Positions 9,384 to 62,854 of a DNA stretch of 64,000 nucleotides are shown piece after piece (position 1 is the stretch's first letter; every line of letters starts with the position of its first letter). The position numbers and the translations under genes are program-made. Source of the stretch: Octopus vulgaris (taxonomy: Eukaryota); NCBI GenBank assembly GCA_951406725.2, contig OX597830.1, positions 60,450,001 through 60,514,000 on the forward strand, read 5' to 3'. A model generated the notes under the pieces. That model saw nothing but the letters and a program-made list of their open reading frames with translations. It was not told the origin of the DNA and searched no databases.

Positions 9384-9686
9384 ATCACGTGACCGACCAG
9401 ACCATCAGATGCTGCTACACATCGCTGGTCACAATGCGCTTCGCATTGTTTTAGCCTTCAAATGACGCCACCCCGCTGGCTAAGCGAGCAGGCCAACAGA
9501 AGAAAGAGTGGGAGAAAGAGTGGTGAAAGAGTACAGCAGGGATCACCACCATCCCCTGCCGGAGTCTCGTGGAGCTTTTAGGTGTTTTCGCTCAATAAAC
9601 ACTCACAACGCCCGATCTGGGAATCGAAACCGCGATCCTACGACCGCGAGTCCGCTGCCCCAACCACTGGGCCATTGCACCTCCAC
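9384..9686 (-). mobile_element. SINE family C (tRNA-derived), tail type 1
   Basis: - strand head GGAGGTGCAATGGCCCAGTGGTT…GGTTTCGATTCC (tRNA A/B boxes). It shares head and body with 33902-34293. Confidence 0.8.
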
Positions 9687-16998: not shown

Positions 16999-17127
16999 CA
17001 TGTATATATATATATATAGTAGTTGAAAAATGTCGTTATAGGTATAAAAAATACCATAAACAATTATAGAAAAATGGAGGAGAAAAAGATGTTGAATCAA
17101 AATTAGATTTAATAAAAATAGGATTCA

Positions 17128-17228
17128 ATACATACGCGCGTTTCAAAAGATAATAAAAATATGTAAGAAAAAATTATAACCATAATAATTATAATTAAAT
17201 TTATGCATTGTCATTTTCATCAGTGTGA
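17128..17228 (-). ncRNA. Hammerhead ribozyme-like motif with long loop 2
   Basis: - strand: ACA-CTGATGA-AAATGA…~60 nt…TCTTTT-GAAA-CGCGCG-TA-TGT. The core is intact, stems I and II are weak, and stem III is palindromic. Confidence 0.55.
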
Positions 17229-17990
17229 GGGATTTTTGTAAAGACATCAAAACAGGTTTAATAAAATAAAGTAAATTAAGATAAGATACAATAAGGGAGA
17301 ACACAAAAATAATGTGTCCAACTCATTAAAAATATTCTATTTATTTATGCAGCTAAGGATAGTCCTGCATTTAAACTGATGTAATGATTGCATTGTTCAA
17401 TTAAATAGAGCCGCTTGAAAAGGTCGTACTGCATCACATCTTCATATCCTGTTGCTTATTTTGATTATATATATATAAACAACGGTCTAACCTTACTTTA
17501 GTTTATTGATCCCTTTTTATATCCCATAAAATTACGTTCTCTCATGAATTTGATGACTACTACCATTTTTAGATTTTGTTCCAATTCCACGAACGAAATG
17601 TTATATCTGAAATTGCCCTGTATTCCGGAGTGAAGAATTTTAAACGTAAACGTTTTTCTGCTCGAAATTTTGCATTTCCTGTTCCTATTTTTGCTTCACA
17701 TGAAAAACTAATCTATTTCGATCAAAAATCCATTTCGTGGTTCGACAGTGGAAGTAAATGTGTTTTAGGAGAGTTCTTCATTTTTCATATACATTTATCT
17801 CGCAAAACTATAATTTTGTCTCGAGTAACAAAGAAATCTATATGAATTATATTTTAATATGTATGCCTTGATTCTAACGACGAGCTGCTAGAATCGTTAG
17901 CAAGGCGAGCAAAGTACCACTTGACTGGGGTCAATGAAATAGACTTAACTCCTCGTCTGAAATTGGTGGCCCTGTGCTTTTGGTAGAAAA

Positions 17991-19802
<1,812 letters not shown>

Positions 19803-19806
19803 CATT

Positions 19807-30612: not shown

Positions 30613-30850
30613 CAATTGCAGCGTGGAAGGTGTTTGTAAGCCATCCGTGCTGCAGCACGGATTTTTGTCAGTGAACAGGTCGCGGTCTTAAAGCGACGAA
30701 AATATTTTGACAAATTAAACTTAAATGTTGAAGTGAATCGAACGGCTTTTGTGTGTTTCTTAAATGGCTTACAAACACCTTCCACGCTGCAATTGTTTTC
30801 GTTTCAGCACACGATCTCAGGTCAAGTCACTTGCTATGCAAGTACATCTC
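30613..30850 (+). mobile_element. Short fold-back element (Penelope pLTR-like), copy 1
   Basis: Inverted arms 30613-30644 / 30764-30795. Homologous to 46386-46625. Confidence 0.6.
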
Positions 30851-37950: not shown

Positions 37951-38488
37951 GACAGAAAAAAAAGGAAAGAAAAAGAGAGAAAGAAGAATATTTGATCAAA
38001 CAGCTTTGTATAAATTTGATGATATTCTCCTGTCATCTTATTCATTCCTCCAGGGCGTGATGTTAATAACCTGCAAACATATTTCTCCTCATACATTCTG
38101 AGAAGTGAAAGCGAAGTAGATTCAGAATATTTTCTGAGAACATGCGCTTTCAAGTCCTCCTCAAAACTGCAGCCGCTTGAAACGAAATGCTCCGCAAGTT
38201 CCGTCGAACTGCTGTTATTACGCCTGGCGTCAAATCTGTGCCCATTAAATCTTTTGTTTAATTAACAATAATAATAATTAGAAGACTGCGTGGAGTTAGA
38301 GTAGATATAGACTCCTATGTAGGTAATAGGGAAGAAAGTTTATTAAAAGCTACTAGAGTCACAGCAAGGCATAGGGAAACCAAAAAAAGGGGGACATCCT
38401 ACGCATAAGTAGGAGTAAGAATGCAACATTTACTTTGGCTCACAACACAAAACAATTCCATCGAGTAATGATACTTGTTAGTCTAGAG

Positions 38489-44417: not shown

Positions 44418-44742
44418 TATACATACACACACACACACACGTATATATATGCTGTTGAATAAAATTTATACAAAGCACCTCCACAATTATTGGCTAGCTG
44501 ATGTCATCATACAGTGGGAATACTCTTGTTACTGTACATACATCAAGAATACTAAATTGTACGTAGATAGCATATATATATATATATATATATATATACA
44601 GTAGTCTGGAACAACTGAATCTTAGTCAGTCAGTTGATGGGCTCCACTACCTCAAATGTTCTTAAAATTTAAATCCACATCTTTGTCTATGTATCTACCT
44701 TCTCTATAATGTTGTCACTTTGTATGAAAATTTTTGTATTAA

Positions 44743-44828
44743 TTGGCTGATGAGTGCTCAGCATTTTAAAACTGTTGTAATACCTACAACATTTAATAAA
44801 ATGATGTAGTACGAAACGATCGTACCAA
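44743..44828 (+). ncRNA. Type I hammerhead ribozyme with extended stem II
   Basis: TTGG-CTGATGA-GTGCT…CATTTTA…TGTTGTA(ATACC)TACAACA…TAAAATG…AGTAC-GAAA-CGATCG-TA-CCAA. All core nucleotides are present. Predicted cleavage after A44824 (GUA). Confidence 0.85.
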
Positions 44829-44859
44829 ATTACCGGAGTCATTCTTGTTGCTTATTTTG

Positions 44860-44915
<56 letters not shown>

Positions 44916-45474
44916 TGTAAGCATCATTTCAGCAACACAGTCTCCATTTAGTTCTGTTTGGTTTATTCCAAAACTTACAGTCTAATCGTACTAAAGAAAC
45001 AAAATCCCCAACCAGATCTTTGACTTCAGATATTTGGGATAAATAGTTGTAGAACGGAACTAAGGATATACACCGGGCAGCTTATATACACCTTTGTTTT
45101 CAATGCTGTTGGGAGTAAGGCGTTCCCAATGATTTCTGTAGAACTCTTCTTATTTTTTTTTCTTTCTGTTGAGCTCCACTTTGTCTTACCTCTTACTATG
45201 TGGCATACATAAAACTCATACTTACGTATATCCGTGCAAACATCCGTACATCCACACGCTTATACATAGATATATATATATTTACTGCACCGTCTTGCCG
45301 CTAAATTCGAAATCATGGTATCAGATTAACCAGCATTACTTTTGCTAACCTAGCATGGACATTTTTCCTACCATGCCTGTATTAATTTTGTGACTATTCC
45401 GTGGCTCAGAAGTATTTTTAACTTCTATTTTTAGCGATGCAGGTACTCATGTAGTACCCTTGAGTGTATGTATA

Positions 45475-45866
45475 TCTTTATATATAAAAGTGAGGTTGTG
45501 TGCTGTCTGTCTCCTACGATTTAGATTCCTAACTACTCCCACATTTTGCGGTGCAGTTTAACCAAAACCGGGTATCTTATAGTCGTGATTAATATCGAGC
45601 CCTTCTGGGTATTAGCGCGCGTCTACGATGAGTCTACGATTTAAAAAAAAATTACCATCAATTTTTCCCATTTTTAATGCATTTTGGCATATATAAGGGA
45701 AGTAACTCTCTAAAAATTTATTATTAAATCTCAGAACGTAAAAAGCTACAGTAACACCCCCTTTGTGGTTAACCATATTGAGATGGCTATTATACTTTAC
45801 ATCTCTAAAAATGCTTATATAGTTATTTCCCTTACAAACCCGAGCAACGCCGGGCGATACTGCTAG
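45475..45866 (+). mobile_element. Non-autonomous Helitron, copy 2
   Basis: 5' TC, 3' hairpin + CTAG, A|T insertion. Near-identical to 6772-7166. Confidence 0.88.
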
Positions 45867-45892
45867 TGAATATATATAAAAGTAAATGTCTT

Positions 45893-45951
<59 letters not shown>

Positions 45952-46318
45952 GCCTGTACGGCTGGCATTCGCTTGCCAATAGTGATGGTATTTTAATAGG
46001 ACAATCACTCTCATATTTACTTATAAATAAGTTCAGGTATTTCGTTTGTTTAAATAGTATTTGATCACTTCAAACGAATTTTGCAGGCATGATTCTGACT
46101 AAGGAGAATCAGGCACCGTTTTGGCACTAAATTCGAAACCTGATATCAGATTAACCTAACAGAGGTAAGACAATTTTAATGTTCACTGGAATTTTTTTCC
46201 TACTATGCCTGCATTAATTTTGCGACTATTCCGTGGCACAGAAGTACTTTTAACTTTCATTTTTAGCGATGCAGGTGCTCATGTAATTTCCTTGTGTGTA
46301 TGTATGTATGTATGTATG

Positions 46319-46385
<67 letters not shown>

Positions 46386-46389
<4 letters not shown>

Positions 46390-46625
46390 AATTGCAGCGT
46401 GGAAGGTGTTTATAAGCCATTTAAGAAACACACAAAAACCGTTAGATTCAGTGAACAGGTCGCGGTCTCAAAGCGACGAAAATATTATGACAAATTAAAT
46501 TTAAGTGTTGAAGTGAATCTAACGTTTTGTTTTTTTTGTGTTTCTTAAAGGGCTTATAAACACCTTCCACGCTGCAATTGTTTTCGATCTCAGATCAAGT
46601 CACTTGCTATGCAAGTATATCCCCG
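46386..46625 (+). mobile_element. Short fold-back element (Penelope pLTR-like), copy 2
   Basis: Inverted arms 46386-46451 / 46514-46583. Inserted in (TA)n. Homologous to 30613-30850. Confidence 0.6.
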
Positions 46626-46789
46626 TAACATATATATATATATATATATTATTATTATTATTAATTAGCCTGTACGGCTGGTATTCGCTTGCCAGTTGTA
46701 ATGGTATTTTAATAGTACTATCGCTAGTGTAACCACACACGTGTTTTTCTTGGACTATTTTTGCCTTTTCTGGATATTTCATCTTTCCA

Positions 46790-50875: not shown

Positions 50876-50909
<34 letters not shown>

Positions 50910-50950
50910 AAGAAAGCGGGATACACACACACACACAAATATACACATAT

Positions 50951-51002
<52 letters not shown>

Positions 51003-51005
<3 letters not shown>

Positions 51006-51123
51006 CCAGCTCGCTTAGCCATCGGGGTGGTGTCATTCAAAGGCTAAAACAATGCGAATGCATTGTGACCAGCGATGTGTAACAACATCTGATGGTCTGG
51101 TCGGTCACGTGATCTCACGTGAT
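51003..51123 (+). mobile_element. Isolated 3' tail of SINE C type 1 (or of its partner LINE)
   Basis: Reverse-complement match to 9384-9496, ending in repeated TCACGTGA. Confidence 0.7.
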
Positions 51124-51256
51124 ATATATATATATATATGGCTGAGGGTGTAGAAATAAGACCTAAACGCTCTAATGCTGCACTCAAAGCACAAAACTGT
51201 ATACACACATGCTGACAGGGAGCGTAATTGCTCGAAAAGCAGTGGTCGAGATATTC

Positions 51257-51303
51257 CCAGACTGATCGATCAGTTTCGGCTTTTGCCGTAGCCTCTTCAG
51301 TGG
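51257..51303 (-). ncRNA. Type I hammerhead ribozyme
   Basis: - strand: CCA-CTGAAGA-GGCT(ACGGCAAA)AGCC-GAAA-CTGAT(CG)ATCAG-TC-TGG. Canonical core, G10.1-C11.1 pair, GUC site (cut between 51260 and 51259). Confidence 0.9.
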
Positions 51304-51558
51304 CAGCGGCCCGACACGGCTGATTCCGGACGACGACAACTCCCAGCAGATATGTCTAGAATCTGGGAATATCCCCACCTCTGCTTTTCGGGGAATTACG
51401 TTCCTGTGAACATGTATGTATACAATTATGTGCTTTGGCTGCAGTATTTGAGAATTTAACTCTTATTTCTAGCAATGTAGGTGCTTATAACACCCTCCAT
51501 CATATTTAATGAGGATTGTAGTTCCCCTTATTGGTACACATTTGCTTACTGCAGCCTA

Positions 51559-51627
<69 letters not shown>

Positions 51628-51835
51628 ACAGGTAAAGAGTGAAATATAATTAATTAATTTTATTTTTAATTTAATAAAATCAATAAATTCCACCTAGTAG
51701 TAGTTCGTTATGGAAAAGGACCATATTCGGTAAAAATTTATATGATTATAATAATAAGGGTTTTTTGCAACAAGATGCTTAACCACATTTCGATATGTGG
51801 TTTAAGCAACTTTTTGCAAAAAACCCTTATTATTA

Positions 51836-51877
<42 letters not shown>

Positions 51878-51960
51878 CAACAATTGAGGGTAAAATTAAT
51901 TAATCAATTTCACCAAGTGTTCAGTATGTAAAAGGACCATTTAAGGCGAATTCAAAATAT

Positions 51961-52427
51961 TACATTATATAATTAGGGCTTAGTAAAATAAATTACTTTG
52001 CCACATACTGAACTTAGTAGAAATAGCAGCCAAAAAAAGGAGTGCAGAAATTTACGCCTGCGCATTTTGAATTTGTTGGCACTGGCAGTTGGAGCTGGTT
52101 CATTTGAAGCGACAAGTTCGCCGATAGGTAAAGTTCCTTCTTTTTAGTGTTTCCAAATCTAAATTAAGAAATTTTGAGCTGACGAAAGAAATGCTGATTT
52201 TATTTGGCTAATCTTGAAACGTTGACGTACTCAAACGATCTATGTACTTGTGATATTTTTCTGTATTTACCTCCAAACCTTCGTGAGCTGTCTGGAGTAA
52301 ACATTATTTGAGAGAAATTTTCTTTAAGTAGTAGAAATGGGTAAAAAGATTTTTTTGGCTGCTATTTCTACTAAGTTCAGTATGTGGCAAAGTAATTTAT
52401 TTTACTAAGCCCTAATTATATAATGTA
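51961..52427. repeat. Perfect 78-bp inverted repeat enclosing a hammerhead
   Basis: 51961-52038 is the exact reverse complement of 52350-52427. Confidence 0.95.
52173..52235 (+). ncRNA. Type I hammerhead ribozyme
   Basis: TTTGAG-CTGACGA-AAGA…GCTGA…TTGGC…TCTT-GAAA-CGT(TG)ACG-TA-CTCAAA. 6-bp stem I. Predicted cleavage after A52229 (GUA). Confidence 0.88.
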
Positions 52428-52438
52428 TATATATATAT

Positions 52439-52514
<76 letters not shown>

Positions 52515-53328
52515 GAAGGTAAGAAGGTAGTAAGCTGGCTTACTATACAGACAGATAGGTAGGAAGAGGGATAAAGACATACACATTTGGTGAAGCGTGC
52601 GAGTTTTCTTATATTAAAGGCTGGAAATCAATCCGAAGAAACGTATTAATTGGGTTTTTTTACAGAGGAGATTATCATTGGTGACTTCGGGGATTTTCTT
52701 TTCTTTTTTTTTTCTTACAGACGTACATGCTCTCGCGCAGAGAAACACTCATGCACAGGACGTACAAATATCTGTAAGCTCAGATACACCCACATGCATC
52801 GTGTGTGTGTGTATGTGTGTGTGTGTGTAACGTGAGCCCTTGCCATTATCTGCCAAAATTTCGTGCAAGACTGTCTATGTTGCGTGAACGGATATATACA
52901 ATTTGTCACTTCATTTCTACCTGTGGAGCGGTAAATCTGTCGGTGTTAATGTATATGTGTATGTGTGTAGTTACGCTGTGCATTTATGGCCGCTTGTATG
53001 TTTACATGTACGCTATTACGTATTTATGTATATATGTATCTATATTATATATATATGTATCTATATATATATATATGTCACAATGACAAATTCATATAAG
53101 CGGTGTGTGTGTATGTATATATGCGTGTGTGTGTGTGTATACACACATACACATACGTACACACACACACACATTAGATATACATATGTATAGACAGAGG
53201 AGGGGGAGATATTTATGTATAAATATGCATATATTGATCTTACCTTAACGGAACAGTAAACTAAATATGCATATAAATATATATACGTGTGTGTATCAGC
53301 ATATATGTTTACTAAAGGAATGTATAAA

Positions 53329-59871: not shown

Positions 59872-60720
59872 GATAAAATTATCAAACATTTTATACCAGT
59901 GGTTTGCATATGTAATAAGAGACAGAAGACATAGATATTTTTATATATAATAGTGTATGAAATATACACGGAGGGAAGACCACCATGTGGATTTCTTACA
60001 GGCTAAAAGTAGCAGTCGAAGCCTAAAACCACGAAAGAATATTCTTACATTAAAGCACGTTAATTTATACCTATATATTTATAAAGTTAAATATTTATGT
60101 CTTCTGACCCTTATTACACATGCAAACCACTGGTATGAAATGTTTGATAATTTTAATCCTTATATTTATAAAGTTAAATGTTTAAATTCTTCTGCCAGAC
60201 GAATACGTTTGAATTTATTCACTGCTATACTGCTCTGGTGTCACATGTTGTTCTGAGGGCATTCTGGGGTGAATCCATGATGTATAAACACGGAACTGGG
60301 TGCCTCTGTGTTTTACTTTGTATTTCCGGTACGTATTGCAGTTATATGTTTATGCATTTAATTAGCGACCTTGTTGATGAGCTACGGTTGATTAAATAGT
60401 CAGTTAATTATCTTATTAGTTGATTTATTTGGCCAGTAACGGCGAAACTTATAAATATAAGTTTACTATATTTTATTCACTGGAGTATCTTTCTTGTGTA
60501 CAAATCAACGGGCTTTAATGTAAGAATATTCTTTCGTGGGTTTAGGCTTCGACTGTCATTTTTAGCATGTAAGAAATCCACATGATGGTTTTTCTCTTCA
60601 TATATGTTTCATATACTGTTATATGTAAAAATATTTATGTCTTCTGACACTCAACGCGCATGCTAACTACTGGTAAATAATTATTTAATAATGTTTTACC
60701 CTTATATTCATGAAGCTTTA
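59872..60720 (+). mobile_element. Penelope-like pLTR structure with inverted 5' copy and decayed hammerhead
   Basis: 59872-60070 is an inverted copy of 60498-60710. 60088-60170 is a direct partial repeat of 60628-60715. TTGATGA…GGC-GAAA-CTTATA(AA)TATAAG-TT lies at 60374-60463. Confidence 0.6.
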
Positions 60721-61520: not shown

Positions 61521-62854
61521 AGATACATTCTGTAGGTATAGGTATCCGGTCCGTCGTAACATGACCCCTTCAGTGTTTCAACATTTACTATGATGGCGTA
61601 TGTCTCTCAACTGGTCTTAAATCACAGTCATATCTTGTTCTTCCATTTTATAGTCGCTCTGTTTACTAGAAATAGCAGCTAAATTTACTTCAAATTACAC
61701 CCCCAAAGTCTTTAAAATAACACATTGACAATCCAGTTTTACATGTTTGAAAAAAAAGACAGAATGACAACAACTGAAATCATTTTGATGATAGGCCTTA
61801 CTCAATCAAGGATGACCTGGGACTCAACAACAACAACAAACACTTCATCCTTCTTTCTCTAAAACGCCGCGGCCAATTACTCCCTGAACCACATCTCTCT
61901 ACATCATCTTTGCACACTTCGTCCCATCAAGCATTAATCCCATCAAGCATCAAGCATTAATCTACAACAACTCAGGTTATGCAGGGATAGCCTCGTTATA
62001 CTATTTCACAGATGCTCCCAGGATATATGTCAAGAAATCGTGCGCTCTTCATCGGATAACAGAGCTGCAACATCACTTTGTGACTATAGCGAGATGTAAG
62101 CTATCAGAAAGTGTCATTCTTTATAGTAAGCTGTTTTATTGGGAATTTGAGCAGTCAAATCGTGACCATCCTGTCTTTTAGGACTGTCTATACCTACATT
62201 ATCTCATGCACTCGAATCTTTATTTTATTTAACATAATAGGTGCCGATTTAAGGTACATTTGGTTGCATTTCCATCAGGTCAACTAACCACGTATAGGGA
62301 CCAATGTGGTTTATCTTCTGGAGTTAGTCAGTAAGTCAAACTTTATGCTGTCTTGTAACATAAAAACAGTTACAACTGTAATACCTACAACGATAATAGA
62401 AATATCAAAAGTCTACCAACCAACTCTCTTGAAGATATCACCTCAAAACTGATATATCTTCGTTCTCAATGTAAGCTTTGCGACAAGACTCATGCAACTT
62501 AAACTTCAGGGCCCCTAATCTCGGAAGAGCCCCAGAAATAGCCTTATTTTAATGAATGAATCTCTCTACATCAGGTTTAACAGTGTTTATAAAAAATCTC
62601 CATCTAATATAGTGCAGCAAAGTCGTAATTTTACTAATATATTTTTCTTCTTCTAAAGAATAAAGAATGAAAATAGAAAAAGAAATGAATGTTTAAATCA
62701 AGGGCAGTAAAATTCTCGAGGAAACCGAATATACAGCCAAAAATGCCTGGAACTGAATAAAAAGAAGAACAGCAGCAACAATAACAAAAGCAAAAACCAA
62801 AAACAGTGCTGAAAAAATGCAGTACACAAATTATATTTAACTCTTTCTTTCTCC

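Follow-up and report, generated by a model that had tools for sequence, protein, structure and literature searches.

A hammerhead-bearing insert framed by a perfect inverted repeat in a TA array of Octopus vulgaris, and its probable origin from Penelope-like machinery

Described Penelope-like insertions and the octopus insert

Insertions of Penelope-like elements (PLEs) are described as carrying an inverted 5'-truncated copy at their 5' end together with a tail of 30–40 nt that can stand at either end, and as showing palindromes at the 5' end of the repeat and duplications of 8–10 bp (PMC8557442, PMC3846280). A preference for (TA)n is recorded for the Neptune, Hydra and Naiad clades, and the formation of tandem and inverted PLE ends is treated as an open question (PMC8557442). 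In vitro, a PLE protein acts on AT-rich DNA, where it cuts both strands and extends them from the same two start sites; the tail is equated with the distance between these two reverse-transcription start sites, and unprocessed RNA is reported as the main template (PMC11167929).

The insert considered here lies at 51872/51874..52427 within a TA array of the 64,000-nt stretch of Octopus vulgaris DNA that was analysed (the window). Very probably it is a non-coding insertion made by endonuclease-positive (EN+) Penelope-like machinery, either as a heavily 5'-truncated copy or as a non-autonomous derivative. Its anatomy is already known for PLEs (PMC8557442, PMC3846280) and only the long tail departs from what is described.

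Pen2a and Pen3a, which are EN+ PLEs of Adineta vaga (PMC3846280; scheme in the Fig. 2 legend of PMC8557442), share with the octopus insert a head-to-head inverted 5'-truncated copy, a tail on one end only, a palindrome at the 5' end of the repeat and a hammerhead in the terminal repeat. The octopus insert differs from them in that no ORF is kept, the (TA)n target hides any duplication and the tail, at 89 nt, is two to three times longer than the length published for PLEs (PMC8557442). The C-terminal-endonuclease PLEs of the Neptune and Hydra clades resemble it in having a canonical hammerhead and in targeting (TA)n or microsatellites (PMC8557442), and these clades are the likeliest class of partner; no protein sequence ties the insert to either. 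Naiad PLEs, including Naiad_Obim and Naiad_Ovul in supplement S1 of PMC8557442, share the (TA)n preference, the inverted copies and the tail, but are described in that paper as being without canonical hammerheads and long inactive in cephalopods, whereas the insert has the full motif and so stands apart from them.

With metazoan type I hammerheads and non-LTR retrozymes (PMC4209133; bioRxiv 10.64898/2026.07.22.740005) the insert has in common a helix I of 6 bp, a helix II of 4 bp, a short palindromic helix III and a lack of coding capacity, although it is a single copy framed by an inverted repeat rather than a tandem array and has A10.1–U11.1. In PAc (Poseidon, Anolis) there are two internal RT start sites downstream of the hammerhead with the tail between them, an AT-rich target and uncleaved RNA as template, all of which have counterparts in the reading of the insert given below; however, the PAc hammerhead overlaps the start of the ORF and its start sites lie ~90 nt after the cut, whereas in the insert, which has no ORF, they would lie 198 and 287 nt beyond the cut (PMC11167929). 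The metadata-table supplement of PMC8557442 does not contain four motifs taken from the window, and no description of octopus PLE hammerheads was found in the literature searched. The family is thus probably undescribed in detail, and repeat libraries may contain it.

Anatomy and tail of the insert

The insert is bounded on the left by a (TA)n run at 51840..51873 and on the right by TA sequence at 52426..52511, which consists of 52426–52442 and 52449–52511. These two right-hand runs are split by a break of six bases at 52443–52448. A target-site duplication is not readable inside (TA)n. The original prediction had described exactly complementary arms around a spacer of about 310 bp, an extra leader of about 90 bp on one side and (TA)n on both, and each of these elements was recovered: the arms, at 51961–52038 and 52350–52427, are complementary over 78 of 78 nt (100%), the spacer is 311 nt and the leader, at 51872/51874..51960 on the minus strand, is 87–89 nt.

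The left arm (51961..52038, minus strand) is an inverted pLTR arm, that is, an inverted 5'-truncated copy of the 3' end of the element. In the right arm (52350..52427, plus strand) the direct copy reaches its 3' end, at the same homologous point as a relative that ends at 51840; position 52427 would be the proximal start site of reverse transcription. Between the arms lies the unique part of the direct 5'-truncated copy (52039..52349, plus strand), which is single copy in the window. An imperfect 12-bp hairpin (52329..52373, plus strand) joins the spacer to the right arm, with its centre at 52351 and the inner end of the arm at 52350. It is the longest of four hairpins of at least nine pairs in the direct copy (z −2.44; 4/200 shuffles). 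Several features expected of a PLE-derived insertion are present: on the 5' side the 3' end recurs as an inverted, 5'-truncated copy, a tail is found on one end only, and the terminal repeat region contains a type I hammerhead that is sense to the 3' end, an orientation to which both the spacer–arm hairpin and the neighbouring inserts point.

An autonomous EN+ PLE has a single ORF encoding RT and GIY-YIG. A search by translation found all six frames of the insert, including those of its spacer, closed by stops, and for this reason it was not filed as an autonomous PLE. No coding PLE sharing the 3' end of the insert was matched within the 64-kb window. The window does hold, at 37992–38261 on the minus strand, the 3' remnant of a C-terminal-endonuclease PLE ORF, corresponding to the GIY-YIG C-terminus. 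A full phmmer scan gave this remnant 76 protein relatives at E up to 0.001, the long ones being RT plus GIY-YIG proteins of 1000–1450 aa; when eight relatives were scanned, RT was found in five, GIY-YIG in five, both in three and neither in one. What we take to be PLE-type RT motifs are present in all seven long relatives. A word-index search with the GIY-YIG fragment returned nothing. The remnant has no DNA similarity to the insert and no hammerhead was found downstream of it. It shows that PLE machinery has been in the genome, and is not evidence that this particular element was the partner of the insert.

The leader is a PLE tail read backwards, a 3' extension of the element RNA that is present on the inverted copy only: it adjoins the arm without a break, pairs with it in the predicted fold and is homologous to the neighbouring insert at 51624. 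On the minus strand the arm and the leader form a contiguous unit that folds at −34.6 kcal/mol (z −3.62) with none of 200 shuffles as stable, and within this fold an 11-bp helix pairs the arm with the leader. Leader and arm are homologous to 51624–51790 with a local score of 76, against a mean of 32.6 and a maximum of 62 in 1000 shuffles. The arm–tail helix has nine of nine pairs in the insert and eight of nine in the 51624 relative, where there is one compensatory change and one broken pair. The direct copies of the two inserts stop at the same homologous point, their arms being 78 and ~50 nt long respectively. The unity of arm and leader, the homology to 51624, the shared end point and the spacer–arm hairpin together lead to a parent RNA that would have run, on the plus strand, from the spacer with its hammerhead through the arm to the tail, the right copy being without the tail and the inverted left copy having it.

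A perfect inverted repeat, TA flanks and the lack of an ORF would also suit a MITE with 78-bp terminal inverted repeats at TA, in which the hammerhead was captured or is accidental and the leader is a separate insert. The repeats of a MITE are terminal and fixed, whereas the left arm here starts 89 nt inside the boundary and arm length varies among relatives (78 versus ~50 nt in one family, 32 versus 64 nt in another). Moreover, the leader both pairs with the arm and is co-inherited with it, and the hammerhead motif arose in 0/100 simulated windows. The MITE reading is largely refuted and carries very little weight. A fold-back chimera produced beside TA repeats in sequencing or assembly is hardly credible either: the perfect identity and low-complexity flanks speak for it, and such structures do trouble assemblies (PMC8557442), but older neighbours whose arms are 83–95% identical have the same anatomy and homologous end points. 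The insert is best regarded as an ordinary PLE by-product, and its value is mainly one of annotation, since such inserts resemble MITEs and are easily misfiled.

The hammerhead motif

The complete type I hammerhead of the original prediction, with a 6-bp stem I and GUA, is found on the plus strand at 52173..52235. Helix I consists of 6 bp (52173–52178 with 52230–52235), the core comprises CUGAcGA at 52179–52185 and GAAA at 52216–52219, and helix II has 4 bp followed by a 5-bp distal stem. The helix III segment, ACGUUGACGU, is followed by GUA, with cleavage predicted after 52229. All the core positions in the definition of PMC3088659 are present (C3 U4 G5 A6 N7 G8 A9, G12 A13 A14 A15.1, U16.1 and H17), as are three helices of 6, 4 and 3 bp that are open at helix I. 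As a monomer helix III has 2–3 bp, and as a dimer it is self-complementary over 10 bp with two G–U pairs, at −10.8 kcal/mol. Canonical metazoan type I hammerheads are described as having a helix I of 6 bp, a helix II of 4 bp and a helix III of 1–2 bp with a palindromic loop, and as being active as dimers (PMC4209133), and by its sequence the motif fits this canonical, dimer-dependent form, which is typical of PLEs.

The first pair of helix II, 10.1–11.1, is A–U in the insert, a position at which G–C is called highly conserved (PMC4209133). When the whole insert was folded as RNA, the probability of helix I was only 0.06–0.08. Both the A–U pair and the predicted rarity of helix I in a read-through transcript would argue against full activity of the putative ribozyme. 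The fold of the hammerhead taken alone is not more stable than that of shuffled sequence (z −0.4 and −0.9), and these energies are uninformative.

Both strands of the window were scanned with a structure-aware descriptor, which was written after the match in the insert had been seen and is thus post hoc; the null consisted of 100 windows simulated by a first-order Markov model on the 56,630 non-simple bases. Six matches were obtained in the 64 kb, of which only that in the insert has the canonical core together with a 6-bp helix I. With a helix I of at least 6 and a helix II of at least 4 required, the motif was recovered in the window and in none of the 100 simulated windows. A match with U3–A8 at 59885 was set aside as weak, as 9/100 simulated windows give some match at that laxity. 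MAFFT could not align the six hammerheads of the window by sequence. Rfam gave no match in the 64 kb at its gathering score. At E up to 10 over 50900–52600 it gave 36 matches, none at the hammerhead of the insert; a sub-threshold Hammerhead_3 match falls at 51273–51315, in the insert at 51140, the rest being low-complexity or hairpin noise, and the other descriptor matches were missed by Rfam.

The 64-kb window contains no second hammerhead-bearing copy of the family. A 21-nt match at 61663–61683 (E 0.03) did not extend and was treated as chance. The insert sequence had no match among phages or plasmids, and a hammerhead pattern search of prokaryotic genomes found none.

Inside the insert 190 nt lie upstream of the predicted cut, so the template RNA would have been either uncleaved or re-ligated. 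Copying through the cleavage site, a canonical type I hammerhead and non-coding sequence would also be seen with a non-LTR retrozyme monomer; in that reading a small non-autonomous RNA cleaves itself in its dimeric form, closes into a circle and serves as template for a PLE protein. Retrozymes have been argued to be PLE derivatives (bioRxiv 10.64898/2026.07.22.740005), and this reading is compatible with the main PLE reading rather than exclusive of it. The insert, however, has one hammerhead and no tandem array of units, and the 5' part of the spacer does not repeat the tail except for a 10-nt match, which was rejected as a real repeat since it is within chance for AT-rich DNA. A retrozyme monomer is accordingly held to be unlikely. 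As for the PLE class itself, what counts against it is the lack of an ORF and of a sequence link to any autonomous PLE, the single hammerhead-bearing copy in the window, the length of the tail, the A–U pair at 10.1–11.1, the failure of Rfam to detect the motif, the ordinary fold energy of the motif and a target duplication hidden by (TA)n.

Neighbouring inserts and the making of the inverted arm

Among 47 segments between TA runs in the window, four have strong inverted repeats (51140, 51624, 51874 and 46387), and a fifth insert of this type, at 30613–30849, lies outside TA. In all five the tail is on one arm only, being on the inverted copy in two, on the direct copy in two and undecidable in one. 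The insert at 51624..51840, to which no strand is assigned, is an older relative of the family of the 51874 insert; it consists of a tail of ~115 nt and fold-back arms that match at 47/50 positions, and is truncated before the hammerhead. The insert at 51140..51565 (minus strand) belongs to a different family and shows the same anatomy mirrored, with its core at 51300–51260 on the minus strand, arms matching at 91/110 positions and a tail of 68–94 nt on the inverted copy. Its minus-strand hammerhead has a 14-nt palindromic helix III and a helix I of only 3 bp, and its arms are 83% identical though the core is intact. In the alignment (51261/51362) its inverted arm starts at most 2 nt from where cleavage is predicted, as would be seen if the template RNA had already cleaved itself; this is a single case.

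Four consecutive inserts had been proposed in one TA array. Four segments do follow one another (51003, 51140, 51624 and 51874), but the first of these, 51003..51121 on the plus strand, belongs to a SINE-like repeat, of which it is the 3' end; over 112 nt it is 92% identical to a longer copy at 9386–9682 on the minus strand. It has neither an inverted repeat nor a hammerhead, and its TA run may be the SINE's own tail.

The inserts at 30613–30849 and 46387–46629 (both plus strand) are one family, 80% identical over 246 columns. They have the same outer ends and arms of 32 and 64 nt respectively. At a C/T site that separates the two copies, each left arm matches its own right arm; in the 46387 copy two other right-arm differences, which sort with the other copy and not with its own right arm, are read as later mutation. 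The inversion junction of the 46387 copy shows a 3-nt microhomology and that of the 30613 copy a perfect 20-nt palindrome. The 30613 copy, being outside TA, is also flanked on both sides by a direct repeat, up to 13 nt long (30600–30612/30850–30862), and some of these matching bases may represent microhomology with the tail. Arm and tail of this family fold no better than shuffles, unlike those of the 51874 insert. Because the two copies share outer ends whilst differing in arm length, and one of them has a duplication of up to 13 nt, the inverted arm is made anew at each insertion and is not the fixed end of a DNA transposon. Arms generated in this way in the neighbours, together with a leader that reads as a tail, strengthen the proposal that the insert is Penelope-like with an inverted pLTR copy at its 5' end. 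The strongest mechanistic evidence comes from these neighbouring families and not from the family of the insert itself.

Both copies of the 30613/46387 family contain a minimal hammerhead with a G3–C8 core instead of C3–G8 (cores at 30671 and 46451). Helix I is 7 bp in the 30613 copy and is cut off at the inversion junction in the 46387 copy, helix II is 5 bp and helix III is palindromic; 0/100 simulated windows gave such a motif. A U3–A8 core is known in nature (PMC3088659), and C3G/G8C appears in print as an engineered mutant with partial rescue. No natural G3–C8 core was found in the literature searched, the coverage of which is incomplete, so that absence from print is not established. Going by the two sequences, this core is possibly an unreported natural variant. 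If it is real, the family would be hidden from all ribozyme searches based on CUGANGA, and a natural G3–C8 hammerhead that proved conserved and active would widen the known variation of the core. Were it confirmed, the counts of PLE ribozymes, and the claims of clades without ribozymes, may be set too low.

In the route suggested for the 51874 insert, the template RNA would run, from its 5' end, through the spacer with its hammerhead into the arm and then the tail. A PLE protein with RT and GIY-YIG, acting in trans or deriving from the lost 5' part, would cleave a (TA)n run on both strands, as may be envisaged from PMC11167929. The right target end would then prime internally at 52427 and copy 389 nt through the uncleaved hammerhead, whilst the left target end would prime 89 nt further 3' and copy the tail and 78 nt of arm (167 nt in all), stopping at a U7 run at the apex of an RNA hairpin. 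Joining of the two cDNAs head to head would give a perfect inverted repeat with the tail on one side. The hammerhead would be a passenger from the pLTR which, with its helix III of 2–3 bp, would cleave only as a dimer and would have been copied either uncleaved or after re-ligation.

The same PLE origin can be combined with a single priming event, the inverted arm then arising by snap-back self-priming on the antisense strand at a palindrome, followed by a template jump. Snap-back has been argued from palindromes at inverted junctions (PMC3846280), and it is in keeping with the inner end of the arm at the centre of the imperfect 12-bp hairpin, with the perfect 20-nt palindrome at the junction of the 30613 copy and with the direct fold-back seen in the 51624 insert. 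The arms of the 51874 insert are, however, 311 nt apart, and the PLE protein extends both strands in vitro from the same two start sites (PMC11167929). In addition, a simple snap-back leaves unexplained the difference in tail between the outer ends, which is seen on either arm and in five of five inserts. Snap-back is thus a possible route, to be entertained with reserve; once the PLE class is granted, the two-primer route is slightly favoured, and snap-back accounts for most of the remainder. Short young inserts whose outer ends are fixed but whose arms vary, where a genome has many of them, would provide a data set with which to set two-ended priming against snap-back.

A wider and speculative proposal, put forward with some doubt, is that small PLE derivatives with hammerheads have radiated in the TA runs of this genome, and that their insertions record two-ended target-primed reverse transcription in vivo. 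Both broken ends would prime the same RNA at two fixed sites up to ~90–115 nt apart, with either end able to use either site; one family would have fixed a G3–C8 core and the family of the 51874 insert would still be moving.

Ages were estimated from divergence at 0.0036 substitutions/site/Myr (PMC13282606), an octopus rate assumed for the host. For Octopus vulgaris the same source reports 336 insertions belonging to 31 PLE families that were recently active, so that, if the host is octopus, young PLE copies are to be expected (PMC13282606). The absence of differences over the 78 positions of the arms corresponds to a 95% upper bound of 3.8% divergence, or ~5.4 Myr. For the neighbours the estimates are ~7, 10 and 27 Myr, each within a wide interval; in its cluster the insert is probably the youngest. 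The suggestion that the insertion is very recent, and its family perhaps active, is weakly supported by the identical arms, but 'very recent' overstates the case: the bound allows ~5.4 Myr, inverted arms can be homogenised after insertion, and the window contains a single relative, which is older and diverged.

Other repeats of the window may be recorded here. A third hammerhead family without an inverted arm lies between TA runs at 44599–44861 and 17009–17465 (plus strand); both copies end 37 nt past the cleavage site, their helix I sequences differ yet pair, and the core of the 17-kb copy has decayed. TA-flanked segments at 45287–45470, 45948–46298 and 46664–46725 are repeated and are possibly another related family, and 34 nt in them resemble the sequence where arm and tail meet in the 51140 insert (E 4e-4). 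A repeat at 45484–45870 ends in a GC hairpin followed by CTAG, which we take to be a Helitron-like pattern. The window as a whole is AT-rich, microsatellite-dense animal DNA with remnants of LINEs and DNA transposons, and one SINE-like repeat occurs in it about ten times. For a LINE ORF, the named matches were all from starfish, sea cucumber, corals and shrimp, at 54–61%. The copies of the SINE-like repeat at 9386–9682 (minus strand) and 51003–51121 (plus strand) show a TA tail and, by eye, a tRNA-like head, in which ARAGORN finds no tRNA; the repeat presumably resembles an octopus SINE. Between 17900 and 21200 on the minus strand, the 3' part of one LINE (zf-RVT) is present as several tandem fragments split by (AAT)n, one run of which, at 18900–19806, reaches ~300 units.
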